The position numbers and the translations under genes were made by a program. 15,596 nucleotides of DNA from positions 1-15,596 of the forward strand of contig JBBRSB010000049.1 in NCBI GenBank assembly GCA_038245785.1, written 5' to 3'. The notes under the pieces were generated by a model. The model ran no database searches and was not told the DNA's origin. It worked only from the letters and a program-made list of their open reading frames with translations. Every line of letters starts with the position of its first letter. The first letter of the stretch is position 1. The stretch comes from Gloeobacterales cyanobacterium (lineage in GTDB: Bacteria; Cyanobacteriota; Cyanobacteriia; Gloeobacterales; PMM-0068). Positions 1,565-15,596 of this stretch are shown here, piece after piece.

Positions 1565-1778
1565 TATCTAGTTCGCGCGCCATAATGGCACTTATTAAAA
1601 CTGATTTCCCACTGCGGGGTTGTGAAAACATTCCAGTTCCCGTTAATGCTTTATTATTGACCTTTCGTTCTTCCCCTTGTTGCCACTCGCTGCATGCCGC
1701 TATTTCTGCCCACCCTGGATTTACTGCACATCTTAGATGCCCGTTCCCTGAAAAATATTTACAATTTGAACATTTCAT
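1557..1778 (-). CDS. Small Cys-rich protein (DUF6464-like CAVNP motif), possibly truncated
   Basis: CSNCKYFSGNGHLRCAVNP...CSEW. The start overlaps the relaxase stop (ATGA, 1775-1778), suggesting coupling. The stop codon lies inside the 33-bp repeat. Confidence 0.65.
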   Translation of the reverse strand: MKCSNCKYFSGNGHLRCAVNPGWAEIAACSEWQQGEERKVNNKALTGTGMFSQPRSGKSVLISAIMARELDRD

Positions 1779-4700
1779 CGGCTTAGACCTCTGCCTTGGT
1801 TTGGTTCTTGTTTTTGCTGTTGCGCTGGGGGCTTTTCTTCTATCGATACCTTTGCTTGCAAGTGCTCGTTCCAGTCCTTCTGACGCGGCGGCATCGCACG
1901 AGATAGTAAAGGCTGTCCTTCCTTCCTTCCCTTCTTCACTACCAAGACCTCGCCACCTTCTTCCATGACCTTCCGTACATAGGGGGTGAGGACTTTATCT
2001 ACAACCCTATCTGCCGCTTGTCTAGAAGCTTTTTTCGATGACTCTGAGCCTATTTCTGTTGAGTCATACGCCACCACCAGTCTTGCTCCCTGGTCCATAG
2101 CTTCTCTAATCTGCTCCGAAGGAATGTCCCCAGAGCCATCTGTTGGTAGGTACACTCGAACGCCTTCTCGGTCTTTATCGAGCATTGCAACTGATGCAGC
2201 ATCTATGGGAGCCTCCGTCAGTACAATTTTCTTTATGACACCCTCTCCCAAAGCAAACCAGTGCCAGCCATCTGCCTTTGCTGACCCTTCTGCTAACCCT
2301 TTAAAGGTGCTTGCGTTAAAGGTCCCACGCAGATTTGCTCCTGTCACCTCACCTCTGACAAACTTACCCTCTTCAAACGTTAGTTTGTGCCTAAGCCAGA
2401 CGGCGTTCTGCTTGCTATCGGCGTACAGTAGCCCTTGGTTGTGTAGCCCATCCACCAGAATTGGTGAGAGCATCCGTTCATTTACCAGATAATCCCTAAC
2501 GGCTGGCCACTTTGAATCATTCTGGATCGGAGCGACAAATGGGGGCTTGGGCTCGGCTTTCCTAGGCTCTTCAGTGCGGCTGATCGCTGGACTCTCTACG
2601 ATTCCCTCACTTGTGCTAAACCGCTCCTTGAGCCAATCTACGGCCTCTGGATATCCAATCTCTTTGAAGTCCATCACAAAATCAATGGCACCCCCCGCCC
2701 CCTTCTGCGTGGTGTGGTTATAGAATTTCTCGCCTGTAAATGAGTACACCTGCCCATCACCACGCCATTTCTTCTTATCGAGCTTATCCCTCTCCATTCC
2801 AAGAATCTGAGCTACCTCTTCAAGCGGCTGCTCGCGTAGCTCTGCTGCCAGCCTCTTGGCCTCCTCTATTTTCTGACGCTGGTTTTCGGTCGCTCTATCA
2901 GGACGGCTCGGGGTGTTTGGGATGTTGACCACGCTATCCAGCTTGTTAGAAGCAGGTTCACTGCCAGCAGTCCCCCCAGAACCCAGGCTATCCAAGGTTT
3001 CATCCCTTGATCTCCTGAGCTGTACGATTTCCTCTTTAGGTCCGTCTGCATTGAGTCCAACTGCCTTTGCAACTGCTCGACTTGACTCTTCGAGGGGCTG
3101 TTGGTCTGCCAACTGTTGATGCTCTTGGCCCATTCCAAAATTGTCTTCTTCTCCTCGGAGGACTGCTTCTCCTGTTCTGCTTGCTTCTTGGTCATCGCCT
3201 CCAAAATTTCCTTTAGCGGTTCCAGGTCTGATTTCTGGATTACCTTGGCTAGGCTCGTTTCTGCTCCCTCCAACTGTGCTGCCTGAGTCTGTGCCAAGTT
3301 TTCCAAGCTCTCTATTTTCGCTATCGGGGCCTCCCACTTCTTGAGGGTTTCTAGCACTAATTCCATCACGGACTTCGACCCGACTATCTTCCCCAGCATC
3401 GCCGGGACTTCCGGTAATGCGCTCAACCTTTCCATCACCAAGTTCGGCGTCTTTTGCAAGGTTTTCTCCAGCGCCTGAACCTGCTTGTACACTGGGTCCA
3501 TCGCGTTCAACATGTGCTCGTATTGGCTCTGACTGCTGTTCTCGTTCAGGAACGCTAGATTGGTTCTCAGAGCTTTCAGGTCTTCCATAACGGAACCCAT
3601 TTGCTCTAATGATTTCTCGGTAGTAGTCTGATTCCCAAAGGCTTTCTCTAGCCTGCTCAACTCTTCCTGAATCGCTTTCAGACTGGCTTCCGATGTCTGG
3701 TTTTCCACTTTCTGGTTGAGGATTTTCAGGTCTGTCTTTATCGGTTTCAGGGCTATTTCCAAAGCGTTCAGCAGCTCGTCGTCCGAGGTCCCTACTAAAT
3801 CTCCATGTTCTTCGGGCTTGCTTCCGTTCATTCCGTTGGTCATGGGTTTCTTCCTTATGTATTTTTTCTTCTACGCCCACTGCCACAGGGCTTTCTACTT
3901 TCGCATCAAGCAACTCCAAAGCATTTTCATTCACACGAGAAACTTTTATTTGCACCCCTAGGGCTTGGGGTTCAGAGGCATAGATGAGAACTTCTTCTTT
4001 ACCCCGACTGACTGCTACATAGTAGGCTTCCTTTCCAATCGATAAAGCCCTGCTACTATCAGCGTCATACATCACATACTTGGCCGTTTTCCCCTGGGAA
4101 CTATATACCGTACTCACATAGTTATGGTCCGAGTGATGTAGATCTTCAGCTCTATAAACCTTGTCCCTTCCCTTAGTCGTCACTAGAAAGGAACCATCCT
4201 CTCTTAGCTCCTTGATGATAAATTCTTGACCATTCAAGACATTGAGGCGGCGGTCATTCTTTGTGAATTTACCTCTATCACCAACGGCCAGTTCAAGCCC
4301 TTCTTTCTGAAATACTTCCCGCTCCAAATGTTTTTTGACTGAGGACTGATGGTTATCACCATTTGAGTCCTGGAGCGTCAACATTCCGAGTCTACGGTCC
4401 ATCTCAGTGACTGTGTAGGACTCACTCTTTTTAAACTCAGCATAGTCTCGATTGAACTGGACTACATCCCCAACTTCGTAGTAAGCAACCTGCTTCTTTT
4501 CCCAGGAGTCAAGGTTTTTAGTTCTCAAGACTTCAATCGTTTTAGTCTCATCTCCTAGACTGCCTTCAGCTTTCAGACCCTTGCGAACCTCCTCTGTAAC
4601 TAGCTTCCGTTCAGTGTTGGTGCCAGCTAACATCAATGTCTGTTTTCTAACCTCTGGACTCCTATGCAGGTATTCATTAGCAAAGGCTGTAGTTCTCTCG

Positions 4701-6466
4701 TCCTGGTCTCTTATCTCAACGACCTTTCCATTATTTTGAAGCAGAGTATAAGAGTCCTCAATTTTTCCCTTAGCTATGAGGCTGACAACTTCTTTCAGAG
4801 ATGGGTCTTTTTGCCTCATAGACTCATCTATTATCGCTACCTTAACCTCACTCTTATTTTGCAGCAGCAGGAAGGGAGAACCCGCCTGTACTCCTGATAA
4901 CTGTTTTCCATCTCCAGTTAAAATTACTCTGCTATCTGTAGCTTCAGCTCTCTTTAAAAGTTCATCTAAATGTCGAGCGCTAGCCTGACCTGCTTCATCT
5001 AACACCAGGATTTCCCCTCTAGTAAGCTGCTCAATACTCGCCATCAGATAAGAATCTAGAGTTTGCGATGGGATACCAGACTCAGACTCTAGAATCTCAG
5101 CACTTTGGGCGCTCGGAGCGAGTCCTCTAATCTTCAGCTCTTTGGCCTCAGCTAGCTCCCTAGCTCCTGCCAGCGTATAACTCTTACCAACTCCGGCATC
5201 ACCCTGGATGATGATGATTCGGTCTTCTGTGGTGCCGATTAAGTCTAGTCCTCTTAACTGGCCCTGATTGAAAGTCTTTTCTAAAGCTATGGCTTGTACT
5301 TCAGCTCTGCTACCTATGGGATTTTGAGTACCCTTACCAGCGTTTACAACTCTTATAATTCTCTGCTCTCTGGAAACGGCCTCTTCCGTTGTCAAGCGTC
5401 CGTCAGGAGTGGAGAGAATTTGGCCTTCTGCCTTTTCTCTGGAAATCTCTTGTTCGAGCCCCTCAAGCGTATAGCTGCCCTGTGATTGCCGCAGCGATTC
5501 TTTCAGCAACTCTCTTTCATTGAAGGCCACTTCCTTATCGCCCAGTACCTCTTTTGCTCCGCCCACAATACTAGACCGTTGTCGGACTTCCTCTGCTCTT
5601 TCTAGATTTGGTCGAGGGTGGATTATTCCATTATCATCAGCTAGTTTTTTCCAATAATGATGCAGCTCTGTCCTATCAACTCGATTTACCTTCGCTTTGC
5701 GTGTCTTCTTTGCTGCAATATCCCTTCGTGCCGCACTAGCATCAGCACCAACTTCAGCGATTATGTCCTCCCTTCTAGAGCTAAACGCCTCTATTTGTTC
5801 ACGGGTATATCCAACTACTTCAAAGGTCCCATCCTTATTCCATACGGTCTGGTATCCAGTCTCATGCAGCCGCTTCGCTAGCTCATTGTGGTAAACCGCT
5901 CCTATCAACATGCTATTGCGGTAAATCTCTGTGTTGTCGATAGTCCGCCACTTCCCGGTCCTATCTATCGTCTGGTTCATCAGGATGGCATGCGTGTGCA
6001 ACTGGGGGTCTAAGTTCCTCGAAGTATCGTGTTGCCAAAGTGCTAGCTGTCCGTTTCCCGTCTTCTCAATATGGGAAACTCCATTCTCCATAATTCGAGT
6101 CTGGATGAATTCGCGCTCCATCATCCCAAGCGCTACTTTTACCGCTTCATGATGAGCTGCTATAGCCTGGACATCTCCATTCACTAAACCGATTATCGAA
6201 ACGCTCTTTGGGGCAGAAAACGTCAAGTCAACCCCTGGCCGCCTGTTTCCTTGAGCCCTAACTAAAAGCTCTCCGTCTTTCCCCTTTCCCTCTAAAGCAT
6301 TCTCGAACTGCCCCGCCTTCACTTGCCCCGTGAGCCCTTGGGTTCTTGCTCCAATTCCTACCCACTCTGAGTTTTTATACCCCTCTTCTTGGGTATAGTA
6401 GTTTTCTTCCTCATAGTATTCTTTAGCTTGAGCTGAGGACTTAAGGTTTGCTAGGTCTACTGTAAT
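1775..6466 (-). CDS. MobF (TrwC/TraI-type) relaxase-helicase with a disordered linker and C-terminal DUF3991/TOPRIM primase-like region
   Basis: DLTFSAPKSVS and HDTSRNLDPQLHTH (MobF HUH motifs); QGDAGVGKS, LDEAGQ, GDGKQL and STVYSSQGKT (SF1 helicase); GGAIDFVM, VRDYLVNERML, IVLTEAPIDAAS and VVAYD (DUF3991/TOPRIM-like). The frame stays open upstream of the track start at 6322 and encodes the catalytic tyrosines (AKEYYEEENYY). I propose the start is ATT at 6466, giving 1563 aa. The family call is firm; the exact start is inferred. Confidence 0.93.
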   Translation of the reverse strand: MTVDLANLKSSAQAKEYYEEENYYTQEEGYKNSEWVGIGARTQGLTGQVKAGQFENALEGKGKDGELLVRAQGNRRPGVDLTFSAPKSVSIIGLVNGDVQAIAAHHEAVKVALGMMEREFIQTRIMENGVSHIEKTGNGQLALWQHDTSRNLDPQLHTHAILMNQTIDRTGKWRTIDNTEIYRNSMLIGAVYHNELAKRLHETGYQTVWNKDGTFEVVGYTREQIEAFSSRREDIIAEVGADASAARRDIAAKKTRKAKVNRVDRTELHHYWKKLADDNGIIHPRPNLERAEEVRQRSSIVGGAKEVLGDKEVAFNERELLKESLRQSQGSYTLEGLEQEISREKAEGQILSTPDGRLTTEEAVSREQRIIRVVNAGKGTQNPIGSRAEVQAIALEKTFNQGQLRGLDLIGTTEDRIIIIQGDAGVGKSYTLAGARELAEAKELKIRGLAPSAQSAEILESESGIPSQTLDSYLMASIEQLTRGEILVLDEAGQASARHLDELLKRAEATDSRVILTGDGKQLSGVQAGSPFLLLQNKSEVKVAIIDESMRQKDPSLKEVVSLIAKGKIEDSYTLLQNNGKVVEIRDQDERTTAFANEYLHRSPEVRKQTLMLAGTNTERKLVTEEVRKGLKAEGSLGDETKTIEVLRTKNLDSWEKKQVAYYEVGDVVQFNRDYAEFKKSESYTVTEMDRRLGMLTLQDSNGDNHQSSVKKHLEREVFQKEGLELAVGDRGKFTKNDRRLNVLNGQEFIIKELREDGSFLVTTKGRDKVYRAEDLHHSDHNYVSTVYSSQGKTAKYVMYDADSSRALSIGKEAYYVAVSRGKEEVLIYASEPQALGVQIKVSRVNENALELLDAKVESPVAVGVEEKIHKEETHDQRNERKQARRTWRFSRDLGRRAAERFGNSPETDKDRPENPQPESGKPDIGSQSESDSGRVEQARESLWESDYYREIIRANGFRYGRPESSENQSSVPEREQQSEPIRAHVERDGPSVQAGSGAGENLAKDAELGDGKVERITGSPGDAGEDSRVEVRDGISARNPQEVGGPDSENRELGKLGTDSGSTVGGSRNEPSQGNPEIRPGTAKGNFGGDDQEASRTGEAVLRGEEDNFGMGQEHQQLADQQPLEESSRAVAKAVGLNADGPKEEIVQLRRSRDETLDSLGSGGTAGSEPASNKLDSVVNIPNTPSRPDRATENQRQKIEEAKRLAAELREQPLEEVAQILGMERDKLDKKKWRGDGQVYSFTGEKFYNHTTQKGAGGAIDFVMDFKEIGYPEAVDWLKERFSTSEGIVESPAISRTEEPRKAEPKPPFVAPIQNDSKWPAVRDYLVNERMLSPILVDGLHNQGLLYADSKQNAVWLRHKLTFEEGKFVRGEVTGANLRGTFNASTFKGLAEGSAKADGWHWFALGEGVIKKIVLTEAPIDAASVAMLDKDREGVRVYLPTDGSGDIPSEQIREAMDQGARLVVAYDSTEIGSESSKKASRQAADRVVDKVLTPYVRKVMEEGGEVLVVKKGRKEGQPLLSRAMPPRQKDWNEHLQAKVSIEEKPPAQQQKQEPNQGRGLSR
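2866..3843 (-). CDS. Nested +1-frame gene inside the relaxase: coiled-coil protein with a C-terminal membrane anchor (MobB/MbeB-like role proposed)
   Basis: 325 stop-free codons. AAGGA lies 8 nt before the ATG. The sequence is L/E/K/Q-rich and helical throughout and has one hydrophobic segment, WIAWVLGGLLAVNLLLTSWIAW. It coincides with the low-complexity linker of the host frame. Confidence 0.82.
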   Translation of the reverse strand: MTNGMNGSKPEEHGDLVGTSDDELLNALEIALKPIKTDLKILNQKVENQTSEASLKAIQEELSRLEKAFGNQTTTEKSLEQMGSVMEDLKALRTNLAFLNENSSQSQYEHMLNAMDPVYKQVQALEKTLQKTPNLVMERLSALPEVPAMLGKIVGSKSVMELVLETLKKWEAPIAKIESLENLAQTQAAQLEGAETSLAKVIQKSDLEPLKEILEAMTKKQAEQEKQSSEEKKTILEWAKSINSWQTNSPSKSQVEQLQRQLDSMQTDLKRKSYSSGDQGMKPWIAWVLGGLLAVNLLLTSWIAWSTSQTPRAVLIERPKTSVRK

Positions 6467-6541
6467 GCCTGTAACCCTTATGGTGGCTTGTACACGGTTT
6501 AAGAATAACGTTCAAAACCCGCTCTTGGGCTAAGCATATAC

Positions 6542-6570
6542 CAAAACAGAGTTTTGCGTACGGTGTCGCC
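6542..6570 (+). other. oriT: oriT nic site (MobF type), predicted nick between 6566 and 6567
   Basis: CAAAAC-AGA-GTTTTG hairpin followed by CGTACGGTGT^CG, paralleling the F-plasmid site GCAAAAAC-TT-GTTTTTGC-GTGGGGTGT^GG. It lies about 100 bp upstream of the proposed relaxase start. Confidence 0.8.
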
Positions 6571-8796: not shown

Positions 8797-8850
8797 GTGA
8801 CTGTCTCAAGCGTGAATAATTCTTAACTAATTATTCCTCTGTATTCCTGC

Positions 8851-9054
8851 CTAGAGAATTCTTGGTGCCCATACACCTTCCACAAATTCTTCTCCAGTGC
8901 TATCTATTTTCCCTCCTAAATAAATGTGTCTATTTTCTCTTCTTTCCGAGCGGAGGTATTTTATGAATTTCCTTTTTTCAATTAACCAACGATATGTGTT
9001 TGGGATAAATAAGTTTAGTGGAAACCAGTACTGCCTAGGCTGTATATAAATCAC
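8851..9054 (-). CDS. Hypothetical protein
   Basis: 67-aa ORF whose GTG start overlaps the stop of the upstream small ORF (GTGA). No family recognised. Confidence 0.4.
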   Translation of the reverse strand: MIYIQPRQYWFPLNLFIPNTYRWLIEKRKFIKYLRSERRENRHIYLGGKIDSTGEEFVEGVWAPRIL

Positions 9055-9182
9055 CGAGTTCTTTCCTCTGTTCCAGGTTCCTCTGATTTCGCACGCTCCA
9101 GAAAAATATCTTGTGCTTTTCTGATTGCTCCTTGAAACGCTTCAGCATTCTCCGCTCTAACCGTAATACATTCTGTTTTCAT
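9051..9182 (-). CDS. Small hypothetical protein (43 aa)
   Basis: Read by hand: MKTECITVRAENAEAFQGAIRKAQDIFLERAKSEEPGTEERTR, with AAGGA upstream of the start. Confidence 0.4.
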   Translation of the reverse strand: MKTECITVRAENAEAFQGAIRKAQDIFLERAKSEEPGTEERTR

Positions 9183-9244
9183 CACTTTATTCCTTTTATT
9201 TCTTGGTGCAAGTTTATGTATCGACGAAGCAATTGAGAAGCAAC

Positions 9245-9412
9245 TCAGATTTCAGTCTTTGCTTTCCGAAATCCGAGCACCCAAAGAACCTTGTTTACTC
9301 TCCAGCCATTCTGCATGAAGAAGTCCTCCTTCGAAACCCAAAGTCCACTCTCCGCCACTACATCCTCCTCTGGCATATCAATCAGGGCTTCTTGATAAAC
9401 ATAAGCAGACAT
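9245..9412 (-). CDS. Small hypothetical protein or gene remnant (55 aa)
   Basis: Read by hand: MSAYVYQEALIDMPEEDVVAESGLWVSKEDFFMQNGWRVNKVLWVLGFRKAKTEI. No clear RBS. Confidence 0.3.
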   Translation of the reverse strand: MSAYVYQEALIDMPEEDVVAESGLWVSKEDFFMQNGWRVNKVLWVLGFRKAKTEI

Positions 9413-9531
9413 CTCAAACAGTCCGATCTGATGGAGGACGCAGCGAAGGCCTCGGCGCTGGGGGATAACCCTTGGACACTATTGCGCTACAGTCGCTAGG
9501 ATCATCAAAAGACATCAGAAAAGAACAGAGC

Positions 9532-9732
9532 ATGAACGACCACACCCAGAACGTCACCATTGAGGTGGAGTTTACCGACGCGCAAGCGAGGCACTTGGCG
9601 CAATTCCTCAAGCGCGTCGGTTTCTCGGAGTTCCTTAAGCACGCCCAGTCAGAGGACGAAGCTTATGCCATGTCCGATGCTGTCAGGCAGGTGCGGGCGG
9701 CGCTGGCAGCATCGGGCTACGCGGTTCGATGA
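9532..9732 (+). CDS. Conserved small helical hypothetical protein of mobile elements
   Basis: 66 aa from ATG 9532. The pattern TDAQA.HLAQFLKRVGFSE...DEAY.M..A..QVR.ALA..GYA.R is one I recall from small plasmid/ICE proteins. The segment is visibly more GC-rich than its neighbours. Confidence 0.7.
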   Translation: MNDHTQNVTIEVEFTDAQARHLAQFLKRVGFSEFLKHAQSEDEAYAMSDAVRQVRAALAASGYAVR

Positions 9733-9983
9733 AATATGGCTACGCCCGCGTCTGGTTTATCTACCATGGTTTGAGGAGTCTGGGGGGCACAGGTATTCGA
9801 TTGATTCCCATGATTCTCAGATTTCTAAGGGCAAGCCTTGAAATCTCAAAGCTCCTTATCCGATGAATTTGAAATACGGCAGAACATAGCAGAGCCTTCG
9901 AGAAGCTTTGTTTCTAGAACGGTTGTTTAGGAACGCCAATGGGTTATAACCAGCGCTGACAGTTGAATAGATTTTTTTGCTCT

Positions 9984-10169
9984 ATGGGTAAAGCAGGAAA
10001 AAGTATCCGGGCAATGGCCTGGGACTATAGATGGCAAGGTGCTGGCTCCTTGGCGCTGGCGGCTGGCTGTGTAGGCGCAACAGTCGGCTTACCAGTGCTG
10101 CTGAAATTCTCCCTTGCCGTTCCTCTTTATTTGTTTGGTCTGGGGGTAGGGTTAGGGCATGTAGTTTGA
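9984..10169 (+). pseudogene. Probable 5' fragment of a membrane-anchored (NERD-type?) protein gene
   Basis: MGKAGKSIRAMAWDYRWQ followed by two hydrophobic stretches resembles the N-terminus of cyanobacterial NERD-domain proteins (from recollection). It runs into the antisense of the ThiF tail and stops. Confidence 0.4.
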
Positions 10170-11129
10170 CTCTGCTTCACTTGATCTTTAGGGACACCTA
10201 CAGAATCAACATAACCACAGCTTTTACAAGTAAACTTTGATATGAAATCGAAAGGAAGTTCCAGCTTCCAATCTTTACTTAATCCTAATTTCTCTGCCAC
10301 TTGGTTTGGCGTATGCTCTAAAGTGAACTTAGGAAGTTCTGAATCTTGACAATCTGGAATTGAGTAGTGATCGGGGCATTCGCTATCCAAGCTATACTCT
10401 ACTCTACTGTGCGAAATCCAACTGGTTGGTTTACTGGCAGAACTAATTGTGTTCCCGGCTTAGCATTACTATTGTCTAGCAAAATCTGAACAAGTATTTC
10501 ACTTTGATAAGCAGCAACAATAGCAGCTGTCATAATTGTTGTCGCTAGTTTTGGTTCCTCATAGTTATCTTTCAGAAGTCCGCATGAATAACTTTCATTG
10601 AATCGCTCCCATGCTGATGTGTCCATCTTGCATCGATAGCAAGCGGTGTCAGGAACTCTGGGATCAAAGAGAGCCACATTCCCTGAATAGTGATTGATAC
10701 CACCGTCTATCCAAGGAACGCCAACGGAGTAGCATATCTTATTAAGAAGTCGCCTTGCTCTCACACTATCTAGGCAGCCTAGAACTACATCCATTTCACT
10801 GAGTAAACCACGACCAAAATCTGTTTCTAATTTCCCAATCACTGGGTGTATATGAATATCTGGGTTGAGTTCTTTGAGGCGTTGAGTAGCAACCTCAGCC
10901 TTAGATCTACCAATGTCAGATTCTCTAAATAGTACAGACCGCGTCAGATTATGAATTTCAATGGTGTCGTAGTCAACGACCCAGATATTCCCAATTCCAA
11001 GCAGTGCAAGATTTTGAGCACCTCATTTCCTAGTGCTCCGCACCCCACAACAGCGACTCTCGCTTCCGCTAGTCTTTCCTGTTTCCAGTTTGGGATGAGG
11101 CTATGTCGGGCATAACGTTCTTGAGACAT
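10127..11129 (-). pseudogene. ThiF/MoeB/E1-like adenylyltransferase, two frameshifts and probably 3'-truncated
   Basis: Three track ORFs join into one frame after adding one A in the run at 11012-11015 and removing a 5-bp tandem duplication at 10395-10404. The result reads VVGCGALGNEVLKNLALLGIG..VVDYDTIEIHNLTRSVLF..GCLDS..ACYRC..YSCGLL..CPDH..CKSC..TCP (332 aa). Confidence 0.9.
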
Positions 11130-11242
11130 GATACGACTTTGTGATTTTGCATTTTATTAGTACTCCCCAAAAACTTACATGTATAACTTACCTAAGCAAT
11201 TTAGCGAGGATCTTACTAAGCTGTCCCCACCGAGGACTTGCG

Positions 11243-11328
11243 GTATAACGGTTCGCTTGAGCGGCTGCGAGTATCTTACGCAATGCACAAGGATTTTTCA
11301 ACAGTTCACTCCAAGCGAATTGTTAGAC
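11243..11328 (-). other. attC: attC-like integron recombination site (86 bp)
   Basis: On the minus strand, R'' GTCTAAC begins 14 nt after the stop of the 219-aa gene and R' is GTTATAC. The inner stem is TTCGCTTG/CAAGCGAA, extended with two extrahelical bases on the bottom (+) strand. Confidence 0.85.
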
Positions 11329-12195
11329 GGCTTTTTACTCGTCTATCGTACTCTAATATCTCTTGAATCGCATTCTATAATGTCTATTGGAAGTTTACTA
11401 AGACCAATATATTTACTTGTTTCATCTTGTACCCACCAGTAATAATCACACAATATTTTTCCTGAGTCACCCACTACAGCAACAATAATCTTTGAATTTT
11501 TAGAATGAGTTTTTCCCACAAGGGCTATTCCATTCCAAGTTTTTTTGTCATTAGAAATGACTACTTGGCGCTGAGGGAAGTATAGAATTTTACTTCCATA
11601 GTACACATGAAATAGCCAGATAGATTTGTCCGAGGGAATCTCTACTTCAATCACACCGCTAACTCTTATTTCAGCAGCATTGAAACCTTCCCCAAGAGTC
11701 ATTTTGAAAGAAGTTAACTCAAAATTATCACCAACTATTTTAACTCCGTATATTAATTTATCACTACCCTTTGCATTTGCTTTCCTAGTTGGAAGAAGAT
11801 CCAGAAATGAAAGAATCAGAAGAATCCCAATACCAGCTAACTCTAATCTTCCAAATGGATCGTTTAAGTTAAAACTAAAAGACTGAATATCGAGCTTGTC
11901 TACTGCGGATACAACGATGAGTAGAACCCCTAAAAGTAGTGTCAGTAGTTGATGGTTTTTGACAATATTAGAAATTAGGTTAAATATTTGTTCTTTCATC
12001 ATTAATTGTCTTTAAGGTGTCATTTGATGATTAAGTAGGTGCAATCAGGATCAGAATAATCCCTGATGGCACAAGAATTTTGAACTATGCCATTTCATAT
12101 TGAATCTCATCTGTTCATCTAATTGATCTTGATGTGAAGATCCCGCAATTCTCCTAAAACTCACGTTGTTTTTAACAATATGCCAAGCCGTCTAA
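11249..12195 (-). mobile_element. Integron-type gene cassette (about 947 bp), no integrase in the window
   Basis: It begins at G^TTAGACGGCTT (12196-12185), the exact complement of its own attC inverse core AAGCCGTCTAAC (14-bp perfect IR, 11320-11333 / 12185-12198). It carries a single AT-rich ORF. Confidence 0.82.
11343..12002 (-). CDS. Cassette-borne protein: two TM helices plus a beta-rich soluble domain, function unknown
   Basis: 219 aa with LLTLLLGVLLIVVSAV and LAGIGILLILSFL hydrophobic helices. The C-terminal part has alternating beta-strand patterns. The DNA is strongly AT-rich. Confidence 0.85.
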   Translation of the reverse strand: MMKEQIFNLISNIVKNHQLLTLLLGVLLIVVSAVDKLDIQSFSFNLNDPFGRLELAGIGILLILSFLDLLPTRKANAKGSDKLIYGVKIVGDNFELTSFKMTLGEGFNAAEIRVSGVIEVEIPSDKSIWLFHVYYGSKILYFPQRQVVISNDKKTWNGIALVGKTHSKNSKIIVAVVGDSGKILCDYYWWVQDETSKYIGLSKLPIDIIECDSRDIRVR

Positions 12196-12246
12196 CAACA
12201 GTGTTGAGCTGCGAACGCTGTCGTCGGCTCTAATGCAGAGTTATGT
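12190..12246 (-). other. attC: Second attC-like site (57 bp)
   Basis: Minus strand ACATAAC ... GTTAGAC. The + strand folds 12201-12214 with 12221-12236 (three G-T pairs), leaving T12224 and T12231 extrahelical. Confidence 0.72.
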
Positions 12247-12306
12247 CGCCTGCCTGCAGGATACCCAAGCACTTTCTATATATAACAGGCCGATATAACT
12301 ACTATT

Positions 12307-12448
12307 TAGACTGAATTTTTCTACATATCCCCCCTATTTGGCTGATTAGGTAGAAATTCGTCCGCCTAATCAGCTCCTGGGAAGACTAGGTGGAAATAAT
12401 TCTGTCTATTCTGCTTATTTGGCTGATTAGGTGGATATTATCTGCCTA
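12307..12448. repeat. Four imperfect palindromes at 40-41 bp periodicity
   Basis: TAGACTGA-N5-TCTACATA (12307), TAGGTAGA-N6-TCCGCCTA (12347), TAGGTGGA-N6-TCTGTCTA (12387) and TAGGTGGA-N5-TCTGCCTA (12428). A 17-bp exact direct repeat TATTTGGCTGATTAGGT occurs at 12335 and 12416. Confidence 0.8.
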
Positions 12449-12449
12449 T

Positions 12450-12486
12450 CGCAGCCCTTGTCGGCTGCGCCTACCGGACACGACAG
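12450..12486 (-). repeat. Dispersed motif, copy 2 (inverted)
   Basis: Minus strand CTGTC-GTGTCCGGTAGGCG-CAGCC-GACAAG-GGCTGCG. Confidence 0.75.
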
Positions 12487-13250
12487 GCACGTGAGGCTTC
12501 GACGGTGAGCACGAGAGCTGCGCTTACAGCCGAACCGCTTACAGGAACCACAAGCTGCGGGGCATGCGCAGTCATTTTTAGATCAACCAACATCTTTCCA
12601 AAATGTAATAAAGAACCCCCCTTAAGGAGATAAGTTGCTACATGCCAAAATGGTAAGAATCACCAAGTATCTGGCTTAATACGCAGATATTTGAGGACAA
12701 ACATACTCAGCAAACATAGAAAGTCAATTGAAAGATCTTTCGGTAGAGTTTGTCAGGTTTTTATTAATTTTGACCTCCTCAAAATCTTATTTGTCATCCC
12801 TTAAAAATTCAAAATCCTAGTAAATTCAAGCGTTCCAGCCGAAAAAGACCGATAGAAAAATTGCAAGAAAATGCTCAAGCCCTTGTAAAATTTGGTGAAA
12901 ACGGTAGTTTACATGGAGCCTCAAACGCCAGTTTTCCAGTAATGCACAGCTTCAATATGTCCACACTTGACCGCTGAAACCCTTCTGTCATGTTGTTAAT
13001 ATCTAGGCACCCTAAAAATAAGGGGATTTTAGAGGGGCTGTAGCTGCGCAAGTGGCAGAGGACTATAGCCTGTGATTTTTTGTCCGCACCCAGATAGTCG
13101 CCGGGACGAGAGTTCGGAGGGAACCTCATGAAATTGAACGTTCTTTAGTTCTTCTCTTTCGATCTTGGCCAGATGAACTTTCTAGCGGATAAAGAATTCA
13201 GAGAATCTATGTTTCATCCGCTGATGACACGAGGGCACACCTGTATGCAG

Positions 13251-14042
13251 TTAGCAAATGCTCAGCTGAACTATGACGGCTGAGGTATCAACATCCTGTG
13301 GGTATTTGACCATTGCGTGGCAGTATTTTCGGCATCCGCATGAAGAGCAATGCTCTCCGGGGGTTGCCTGAAATTCTTGGTCTGTTGTTAGTCTTAGGGC
13401 TAGTTCTTCTATTTTCTTTTTCGCAATCTCTCTTTGCTCAGCCCTCGTCTCGAAAGTGAGGCTTTCTCCCTTTTTGAGGTAGATATGACTGACCTTCATC
13501 AGTCTTTGCTGGTAATTTTGGTCTAGAGCGATTTGCATCAGCCCCAATTGAAGATCCAATTCTAGTTGCTTCGGCGTGAGCATCGTCTTGCCAAGTTTGT
13601 AGTCGATGAGGTGCAGAGCAGCCCGATTGTCTCCTGTAGGTAAGCTGTCGAGGCGGTCAAAACGGCCTCCAATCTTAAATCCAATGCCACCCATATAGAG
13701 GTTGCCTTCTATTTTTCCCTCACACGCAAGGGGAAGCCTCCAAGGCAGATCTTTAACGAATTTTTCATAATATCCTTTCAGATAATCCAACCCGCGCACT
13801 CCATCCTCTCTTGGTAATCCTTCCCTCAAGGAGCAGGTTTGCCAAATATTTTCTAAATCCTTTAGCGAGGGTTTTTCCCTCCATTCAGGCCATTGATGAA
13901 ATTCTGCTAAAGCCGCATGCAAAGCTTTTCCCAAAGCCGCTGCCCCCATTCCACCTGAGCCCACTCGTTTGTGGTAACGAAGGAAATACTGGTTCGGGCA
14001 TCGGCTATAGCTGGTAAGTTTAGTCGCTGATAGAGAAAGCAT
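13251..14042 (-). CDS. RecB/AddB/Cas4-like PD-(D/E)XK nuclease with a four-Cys cluster
   Basis: LSATKLTSYSRCP, LGKALHAAL, GRFDRLD, LIDYK and QLGLM (QxxxY variant), with C-terminal HCSSCGCRKYC. Confidence 0.9.
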   Translation of the reverse strand: MLSLSATKLTSYSRCPNQYFLRYHKRVGSGGMGAAALGKALHAALAEFHQWPEWREKPSLKDLENIWQTCSLREGLPREDGVRGLDYLKGYYEKFVKDLPWRLPLACEGKIEGNLYMGGIGFKIGGRFDRLDSLPTGDNRAALHLIDYKLGKTMLTPKQLELDLQLGLMQIALDQNYQQRLMKVSHIYLKKGESLTFETRAEQREIAKKKIEELALRLTTDQEFQATPGEHCSSCGCRKYCHAMVKYPQDVDTSAVIVQLSIC

Positions 14043-15073: not shown

Positions 15074-15596
15074 CTACTGCACGACTTCTTTGAAGAGCAC
15101 TGCAGCCAAGCTACAAATGGACTCTTCCCTTTCGACTAGACCACTAGCAGCAAACTTTTGGACCGTTTCAAGACAGTACTTCAGTAATCCTGCTTGCTGC
15201 TCTACCTTCGCTGCCAGCTCCTTCTTCTCTACATCTGTCCAGGGCCTCCATGTTTCCTGCGGCCCCTGTTGCCCTAAAGGGTCCCCGCGCAGCGTCTTGC
15301 CCGCTCTGTCGTGTCTGGCAGGCGTGGTCCCTGAGTTTAGCCTGAGCTCTGCCGTGTCCGGCAGGCGAAGCCGAGAAGGGCTCTGCCGAAGGGCTGCCGT
15401 CAAGGGCTGCCGGGGGCTATTACCCAGCCCTAGGGGCTTCGAAGCAGGTGAGGGGGAATCCAGAATTGAGTAGCCCTTACCGCTGGGGTTTTCAATAAGC
15501 TGAACCGGATTGCCTTTCCTCAGAGGAGTTAGCACCGCATCCCCTGGGTCGCCCCACAGTTTGATATCTTCCCCGTCCGGCATCGTAATCACCACA
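15074..15596 (-). CDS. Hypothetical protein, 5' end outside the window, with a repeat-rich central linker
   Basis: The frame is open to the window edge. Globular-looking N-terminal (IKLWGDPGD..L..LRKG..VQL) and helical C-terminal parts are separated by about 55 low-complexity residues. Confidence 0.7.
   Translation of the reverse strand, partial: VVITMPDGEDIKLWGDPGDAVLTPLRKGNPVQLIENPSGKGYSILDSPSPASKPLGLGNSPRQPLTAALRQSPSRLRLPDTAELRLNSGTTPARHDRAGKTLRGDPLGQQGPQETWRPWTDVEKKELAAKVEQQAGLLKYCLETVQKFAASGLVEREESICSLAAVLFKEVVQ
15303..15408 (+). repeat. Dispersed motif, tandem copies 4 and 5, plus a 13-bp-period AAGGGCT repeat
   Basis: GCTCTGTCGTGTCTGGCAGGCG (15303-15324) and GCTCTGCCGTGTCCGGCAGGCG-AAGCC-GAGAAG-GGCT (15346-15382). 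AAGGGCT occurs at 15376, 15389 and 15402. Confidence 0.78.

Follow-up and report, generated by a model that had tools for sequence, protein, structure and literature searches.

Arrays of integron cassettes that lack a nearby integrase gene are frequent, and integrons have been recorded in cyanobacteria before, so that the core of what we describe here is ordinary. As far as the excerpted sources go, such arrays are classed as CALINs, i.e., clusters in which two or more attC sites occur with no intI near, and are set apart from complete integrons (Cury et al. 2016, PMC4889954; Neron et al. 2022, PMC9024848; PMC9668308); about half of the CALINs (1362 of 2961) have two attC sites, and service by an integrase in trans has already been proposed (PMC4889954, PMC9024848). 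Conjugative delivery of attC bottom strands is described as a driver of recombination (10.1101/2022.09.11.507474), and gene-less cassettes of Treponema have been discussed for first-position effects (PMC8876359). In the literature, as far as available, neither the attI sites of cyanobacteria nor a mini-cassette that locks an array has been the subject of a study, and the supplements of PMC4889954 and PMC11014356 may list some. What is new at the present locus is a gene-less 103-bp cassette in first position, closed by the upper of two attC sites.

The window, i.e., the whole stretch of DNA analysed, is the complete 15,596-nt contig C49 of a 5.0-Mb assembly in 255 contigs. We consider it probable that this relaxase-carrying contig holds an integron platform devoid of intI and made up of an attI and two cassettes, that the platform was likely filled by IntI through attI x attC recombination, and that the last-inserted, 103-bp cassette is of a kind predicted to damp shuffling. 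The features are as follows.

12592–12795, minus strand: dispersed 200-bp repeat with a sigma-70-like promoter (12727–12700) facing the array, where intI would be.
12296–12450, minus strand: attI, also delimited more narrowly as 12296–12370, with L box at 12305–12311, 5-bp spacer, crossover at 12298/12299 and further TTAGG/CCTAA-type repeats.
12196–12298, minus strand: gene-less mini-cassette of 103 bp in first position, supported by the homologs L066, L067, L093, L096 and L097 and by folding.
12190–12246, bottom strand is the plus strand: upper attC of 57 nt, closing the mini-cassette, crossover at 12195/12196, 6/5 spacers (model R1).
11249–12195, minus strand: gene cassette of 947 bp in second position, its ends taken from homology with L006 and the attC crossover.
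11343–12002, minus strand: 219-aa protein with two hydrophobic helices, a linker and a predicted Ig-like beta-sandwich.
11243–11328, bottom strand is the plus strand: lower attC of 86 nt, closing the gene cassette, crossover at 11248/11249 (model R1).
10127–11129, minus strand: broken ThiF/E1 gene (frameshift, internal stop, cut short) downstream of the array, from three-frame translation.
6542–6566, plus strand: MOBF-type nic-like site, a 6-bp hairpin and then a stretch ending in GCGTACGGTGT, predicted nick at 6566/6567.
1775–6480, minus strand: MOBF relaxase-helicase (TrwC, AAA_30, DUF3991 and Toprim; Pfam TrwC, E 4e-67).

Both attC sites are real. A preliminary description of this DNA had placed two such sites here, and its outer limits, the start of the lower site at 11243 and the end of the upper site at 12246, are exact. 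The sites score 15.5 (lower) and 15.25 (upper) in a rule scan in which 16 genome sites, versus none in a 2.5-Mb Markov null, reach at least 15, both strands counted. The covariance-model check that had been proposed was made with R1, a purpose-built model and not that of IntegronFinder, whose 25 training sites were chosen by the same author's rule scan and left out both window sites; public plasmids contributed 11 of them, other contigs of the assembly 13 and L006 one. It supports both, with 47.8 bits (E 5e-11) on the plus strand versus 5.5 on the minus strand for the lower attC and 29.9 bits (E 3e-6) versus 6.8 for the upper, the next best match in the window being at 8.7 bits. The R1 alignment has two-sided changes in 14 of its 21 pairs, partly by selection. 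Each site has R boxes of the form RYYYAAC...GTTRRRY, off consensus at one or two degenerate positions, paired L boxes and a central spacer of 5–6 nt. The two extrahelical bases on one strand of each hairpin were also correctly described; they lie on the R'' arms and are C and T in the lower and T and T in the upper attC, the first such base usually being G according to PMC5027507. The computed probability of the recombinogenic fold of the lower attC is 0.18 alone and 0.16 with flanks; for the upper attC the lowest-energy form is not the attC hairpin (z = +0.2). With 150 of 641 candidates scored, no fewer than 37 attC sites, spread over 18 contigs, are present in the genome. In the arrays of two short contigs with 50% GC (L010 on C81 and L011 on C213), the attC sites form one homogeneous family of 90 nt, with arms like those of aadA-type class 1 sites; they are probably fragments of one bigger array.

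On sequence grounds, the array is headed by an attI, which makes it more than a mere cluster of attC sites: it is an integron platform that lacks intI in cis. The attI starts 50 bp beyond the upper attC and reads, on the minus strand, L box, 5 bp and a crossover between G and TT. Positions 12296–12397 are 94% identical over 102 nt to DNA upstream of an intI stub on C52, the identity ending at TAAC, and the loose ends of three contigs fall exactly at 12296. An HMM built without the window finds the site with E 5.8e-16, and the site can be aligned with two other attI, that of L006 and that of the complete integron carried by Kovacikia plasmid pB; L box, 5-bp spacer, crossover, homology end and, in relatives, the position upstream of intI are all those of an attI. 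[quoted passage not shown] Neither tblastn nor the HMM gave an intI match on C49, in line with the absence of an integrase stated before, and the locus is outside the definition of a complete integron.

The preliminary description had also advised a search for intI elsewhere, and one intact IntI is present in the same assembly, at 301–1266 of contig C2. It scores 480 bits against the TIGR02249 cut-off of 265, as the single one of 16 matches above that cut-off, and its 321 residues share 70.6% identity with the integrase of Kovacikia plasmid pB, which is the closest integrase in the plasmid collection; the relatives of the contig are cyanobacterial. The assembly also has at least eight intI stubs or pseudogenes. 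A transposase end, which we take to be that of an IS110 element, lies just upstream of the intact intI and makes its expression uncertain; the same end stands at contig breaks, both there (L001:1-150) and on C53 (L020). The assembly looks like a metagenome bin, being best represented in a sediment metagenome that may be its own source, with no RNA data set among the holders listed, and we infer that C49 and the intact intI share one cell.

Genome-wide, an attI HMM with seven genome sites in its training set returned 28 attI-like rows (E<=0.3) on about 18 contigs. A correctly oriented attC lies within 1.6 kb of seven of these and is missing from the other 21. In five of the six such rows besides the window, the first seven bases past the crossover equal the inverse core of the attC, a match that is weak because GTTAGGC occurs more often than any other core (10 of 33); in two of these rows it extends to 10 and 11 bases. 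Most attI-like sites break off abruptly at the crossover, and no attC follows them. Recombination with genome sites does not explain how platforms spread without intI, since attI1 is described as hardly recombining with these (10.1101/2022.09.11.507474).

The gene cassette is, judging from its homologs, a real mobile cassette. It begins, directly after the G of the crossover, with TTAGACGG, and its own inverse core is the exact 9-nt complement of this start, as had been pointed out. Its GC content is 35.7%, and the 34% GC of 11343–12002 versus 46% for the contig bears out the description of its ORF as AT-rich. Five homologs were found (64–89%); two of three metagenome-contig loci hold the cassette and the third (L008) is a chance match. 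A search for the same cassette in other contexts, advised at the outset, led to L006 and L007, which are one sequence type in two assemblies; there a truncated intI and an attI come first, then another cassette and then the one of the window. Identity between the window and L006 starts at the crossover between G and TTAGA and stops at the attC crossover, so the ends are exact; the gene in L006/L007 is frameshifted and its attC damaged. Homologs never followed by attC had been named as a finding that would speak against a cassette, and the L006/L007 homolog is followed by the same attC, though damaged. The cassette was not found in 400 other genomes of the phylum; a match on a GTDB contig covered 23 residues only and was taken as chance.

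The encoded 219-aa protein belongs to an unnamed family with 155 representatives at E<=0.001. Its structure model has a pLDDT of 90 when built from 102 sequences and of 39 from five sequences, and the best structural match is a generic one to Ig folds (Z 7.7). Foldseek matches to Kir channels (TM 0.2–0.25, rmsd 13–15) were rejected. No Pfam family matched the protein, PADLOC gave no match at E<=0.1, no NCBIfam or Pfam family occurs in more than three of 102 aligned family members, and an Atlas search returned unnamed clusters alone. From its form and from the titles of papers on defence cassettes, it might tentatively be regarded as a membrane-anchored binding or anti-phage protein, an assignment we hold to be doubtful.

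The mini-cassette in first position has only 46 bp between the core site at attI and the upper attC, and its ends are complementary over 13–14 nt. In three overlapping search sets of 401, 48 and 300 genomes, it occurs as six copies in four cyanobacterial genomes: the window, G700, G645 and, with three copies, G720. All four copies with visible upstream DNA (window, L067, L066 and L093) directly follow an attI, and that of L067, in G700, sits in a complete integron; the L096 copy begins one base before the crossover, and the L097 copy is cut by a contig end. With the query left out, three of three copies would all be first by chance with a probability of 0.007 at the base rate of this genome (7/37) and of 0.125 at a rate of one half, two of the three being from one genus. 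The sequence behind each of the six copies differs. Since the bodies are 61–86% identical, their platforms 47–56%, and the window platform is 91% identical to that of C52, which has another first cassette, several separate insertions are suggested. The genome G544 has the 5' half of the mini-cassette alone, without recognisable attI or attC.

A motif derived from the mini-cassette matched, with at most one mismatch, 12 of 401 genomes versus nine control matches; the three exact matches are the copies used to make the motif, and of the nine one-mismatch matches eight are unrelated and the ninth is the partial copy in G544. Eight viral motif matches, as well as the loci L094 and L095, were likewise unrelated to the mini-cassette. 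It has no match in the plasmid collection, and Rfam gave nothing at E<=1 within 11000–13300. In the G700 integron, 137-bp inverted repeats (L067:54-190 and 1628-1764) surround the attI, whose spacer is 4 bp long, and the first cassettes.

In all four full copies the ends of the mini-cassette pair on the bottom strand, and the computed probability of the recombinogenic fold drops 29- to 4000-fold, from 0.026 for the site alone to 9e-6 in context in the window and from 0.29 to 0.01, 0.0017 to 6e-5 and 0.54 to 1e-4 in the others; the circle forms of the four fold at 0.17, 0.11, 0.016 and 0.75. The drop in the window is the largest of 26 computable sites (seven of 33 were not computable), the next being 0.032, a control that is partly built in because only a tiny cassette has its own start within 60 nt. 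The ends of the mini-cassette are thus predicted to hide the upper attC and to damp excision of the neighbouring cassette. IntI binding can stabilise poorly folding sites, and further cassettes could still enter at attI even with the attC hidden, unless something else prevents it. A site folding at 1e-5 gave lower excision in E. coli (Loot et al. 2017, PMC5371416).

The course of events that we favor would be as follows. A host-type attI platform came to stand upstream of the remnant of an E1 operon, and the membrane-protein cassette would have been inserted first and the mini-cassette last, both via attI x attC. The intI may have been lost before or after cassette entry, a promoter-bearing repeat now being in its place, and IntI would be supplied in trans from the intact intI elsewhere in the assembly. 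In single-stranded DNA, the start of the mini-cassette would pair with the inverse core of the same cassette, some 35 nt distant, and strip the R'' arm from the upper attC, so that the gene cassette would seldom be excised by attC x attC recombination. The lower attC is predicted to fold well and could serve as a substrate for a recipient IntI on the entering plus strand, which would yield a cointegrate at attI and not a clean cassette swap.

Several alternatives bear on the mini-cassette. The one that fares best, possible though on balance improbable, regards it as a neutral deletion remnant, found first only since tiny cassettes vanish faster from inner positions, with the hairpin as a by-product of size. 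Complementary ends are indeed common to every cassette, upstream DNA is visible in just three copies besides the query, two of them from one genus, and neither a longer parent nor a function was found; however, two families and several platforms share a conserved body, and the predicted hairpin would lower, not raise, loss from inner positions.

An unlikely alternative is that the mini-cassette is kept in first position for expression, be it as a promoter, in sense or antisense towards intI, or as an ORF-11-like leader. ORF-less promoter cassettes are known (PMC11014356, PMC8876359). The G645 copy has TTGACC-18-TAAAGT, the copies in G700 and G720 have a frame led by ATG (ATG AAA GTG CTT GGG TAY CCT) that runs into the attC, and a conserved 18-nt core, placed in the loop, is not needed by the folding lock alone. 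The window copy, however, lacks the ATG and 5–7 nt of the spacer, the frames of the copies diverge after seven codons, and a promoter scan has no site in the mini-cassette of the window.

A promoter may be supplied by the 200-bp repeat, although the promoter scan alone is at chance level (6 versus 5.2). The repeat has copies on at least eight other contigs (including C38, C65, C39, C3, C47, C1, C8 and C13), with -35 and -10 hexamers conserved among copies that lie upstream of unrelated accessory genes, and on C38 it stands between attI and a C-terminal intI stub. It has no Rfam match, and is a candidate substitute for Pc and possibly a portable promoter. Nearby, a 34-bp inverted repeat (12453–12486 and 15349–15382, 2.9 kb apart) surrounds PD-(D/E)XK and Rpn-like genes and has copies on C43, C64, C72 and other contigs. 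On the other side of the array, the ThiF/E1 remnant was considered as a third cassette and rejected, as no attC follows it and none of 13 homolog loci has one; it may have had an attC that has since been lost. In another cyanobacterium (L050), a homolog of this E1 heads an intact ubiquitin-like operon of E1, small protein, E2 and JAB.

The broken state of the neighboring E1 gene and of a backbone gene, together with the intI stubs and pseudogenes noted above and the frameshifted gene and damaged attC of the L006/L007 cassette, could mean that the whole locus is a dead relic out of the reach of IntI. We judge this to be unlikely, as neither the ORF of the cassette nor the two attC sites nor the boxes of the attI are damaged, and the assembly has an intact intI.

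A wider reading, which we put forward as speculative and quite unlikely, sees the mini-cassette as a plug, i.e., a gene-less cyanobacterial unit of 100–170 bp that recombines well as a circle, hides its own attC once in attI, gives the attI an off-consensus R box, closes the array to new cassettes and keeps the neighboring gene in its place, with one integrase serving dozens of attI scattered over chromosome and plasmids. The R boxes left in attI by the copies are GTTATAT, GTTAATT, GTTAGTT and GTTATTT. If true, this would be an integron off-switch written in DNA structure.

With respect to transfer, the contig has a predicted relaxase and oriT, the combination that defines a mobilizable MOBF element. 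The relaxase is the only one of its type in the assembly, and its region has one short match in PLSDB; its YY motif lies in frame upstream of the called start, with no ATG, GTG or TTG in the frame before the catalytic tyrosines. The nic pattern has two matches in the genome, of which only 6542–6566 has a hairpin; compared with the description in PMC4176350, G17, T18, T23 and GTGT are kept and the purine at position 26 is absent. With this hairpin and GTGT site upstream of the MOBF relaxase, the plus strand is likely the transferred strand, as previously proposed, and the array would enter 4.7–5.7 kb after the nick. C49 also encodes a resolvase and HigB; a 42-nt inverted repeat (1387–1428 and 1523–1564, 88%) upstream of the resolvase gene is possibly a res site or a transposon end. 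The contig, earlier called a plasmid and better termed a putative one, is linear, with no terminal overlap and both ends in repeats, no replication family was found among the 17 ORFs scanned, and no coupling protein gene is present on it, the one TrwB-type match of the assembly being on C12.

The further suggestion that cassettes are exchanged during transfer holds up in part. It agrees with the plus strand as the likely transferred strand; against it, excision depends on the upper attC, for which sequestration is predicted (1e-5), the contig has no coupling protein gene, and the start of the relaxase is uncertain. Among contigs of two sequencing runs, in which rare variants are dropped, no joint skips a cassette; a 2,509-nt contig of run X1, possibly the assembly's own source, spans 9864–12372 without differences. 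Another X1 contig, at a depth of 9.9, skips 1004 bases (8819–9824) between TT ends and is a minor variant or a related element. A plain CALIN that arose by insertion at a secondary (attG) site and exchanges cassettes freely in conjugation is very improbable, for although no intI lies on the contig, the attC bottom strands are on the likely transferred strand and the junction past the last attC has GTT and, at +6 to +9, matches the CRGM motif of attG in three of its four bases (10.1101/2022.09.11.507474), it is contradicted by the attI heading the array, the predicted sequestration of the upper attC and the lack of a coupling protein gene.

Standard tools would call the locus a CALIN and miss the capture site; according to the descriptions available, IntegronFinder would not report the attI of the window because it matches attI of classes 1–3 only. 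An integrase acting in trans may therefore still find live targets in loci of this sort, which could be spread by a mobilizable element. The recurrent mini-cassette in first position offers a cheap test of integron locking, has a bearing on the stability of arrays and would make a useful component of synthetic integrons. In its available part, PMC12901181 relates array stability to unusual sites and not to such a mini-cassette.

Compared with known systems, the window resembles the CALINs described in its two attC sites with no intI nearby, but differs from them in keeping an intact attI and a candidate promoter, so that capture would still be possible in principle. Plasmid pB of Kovacikia minuta (NZ_CP083584.1) is a cyanobacterial plasmid with a related attI, a divergent layout and the related integrase; in contrast to the window it has its own intI, its record is typed as non-mobilizable and it has no match to the mini-cassette. 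An inverted-integrase layout is seen on Gemmatirosa plasmid 1 (L030), where 27 attC sites were found downstream of intI in the same direction. The ORF-less cassettes described from Vibrio (PMC11014356) and from Treponema and Xanthomonas (PMC8876359) share with the mini-cassette an attC and the lack of a gene, whereas the latter is set apart by its core-to-attC length of 46 bp, the predicted sequestration of its attC and its recurrent first position. Finally, the attG/SALIN arrays described by Loot et al. (10.1101/2022.09.11.507474) also have cassettes far from intI, however, the upstream site in the window is an attI homolog and not a genomic secondary site.
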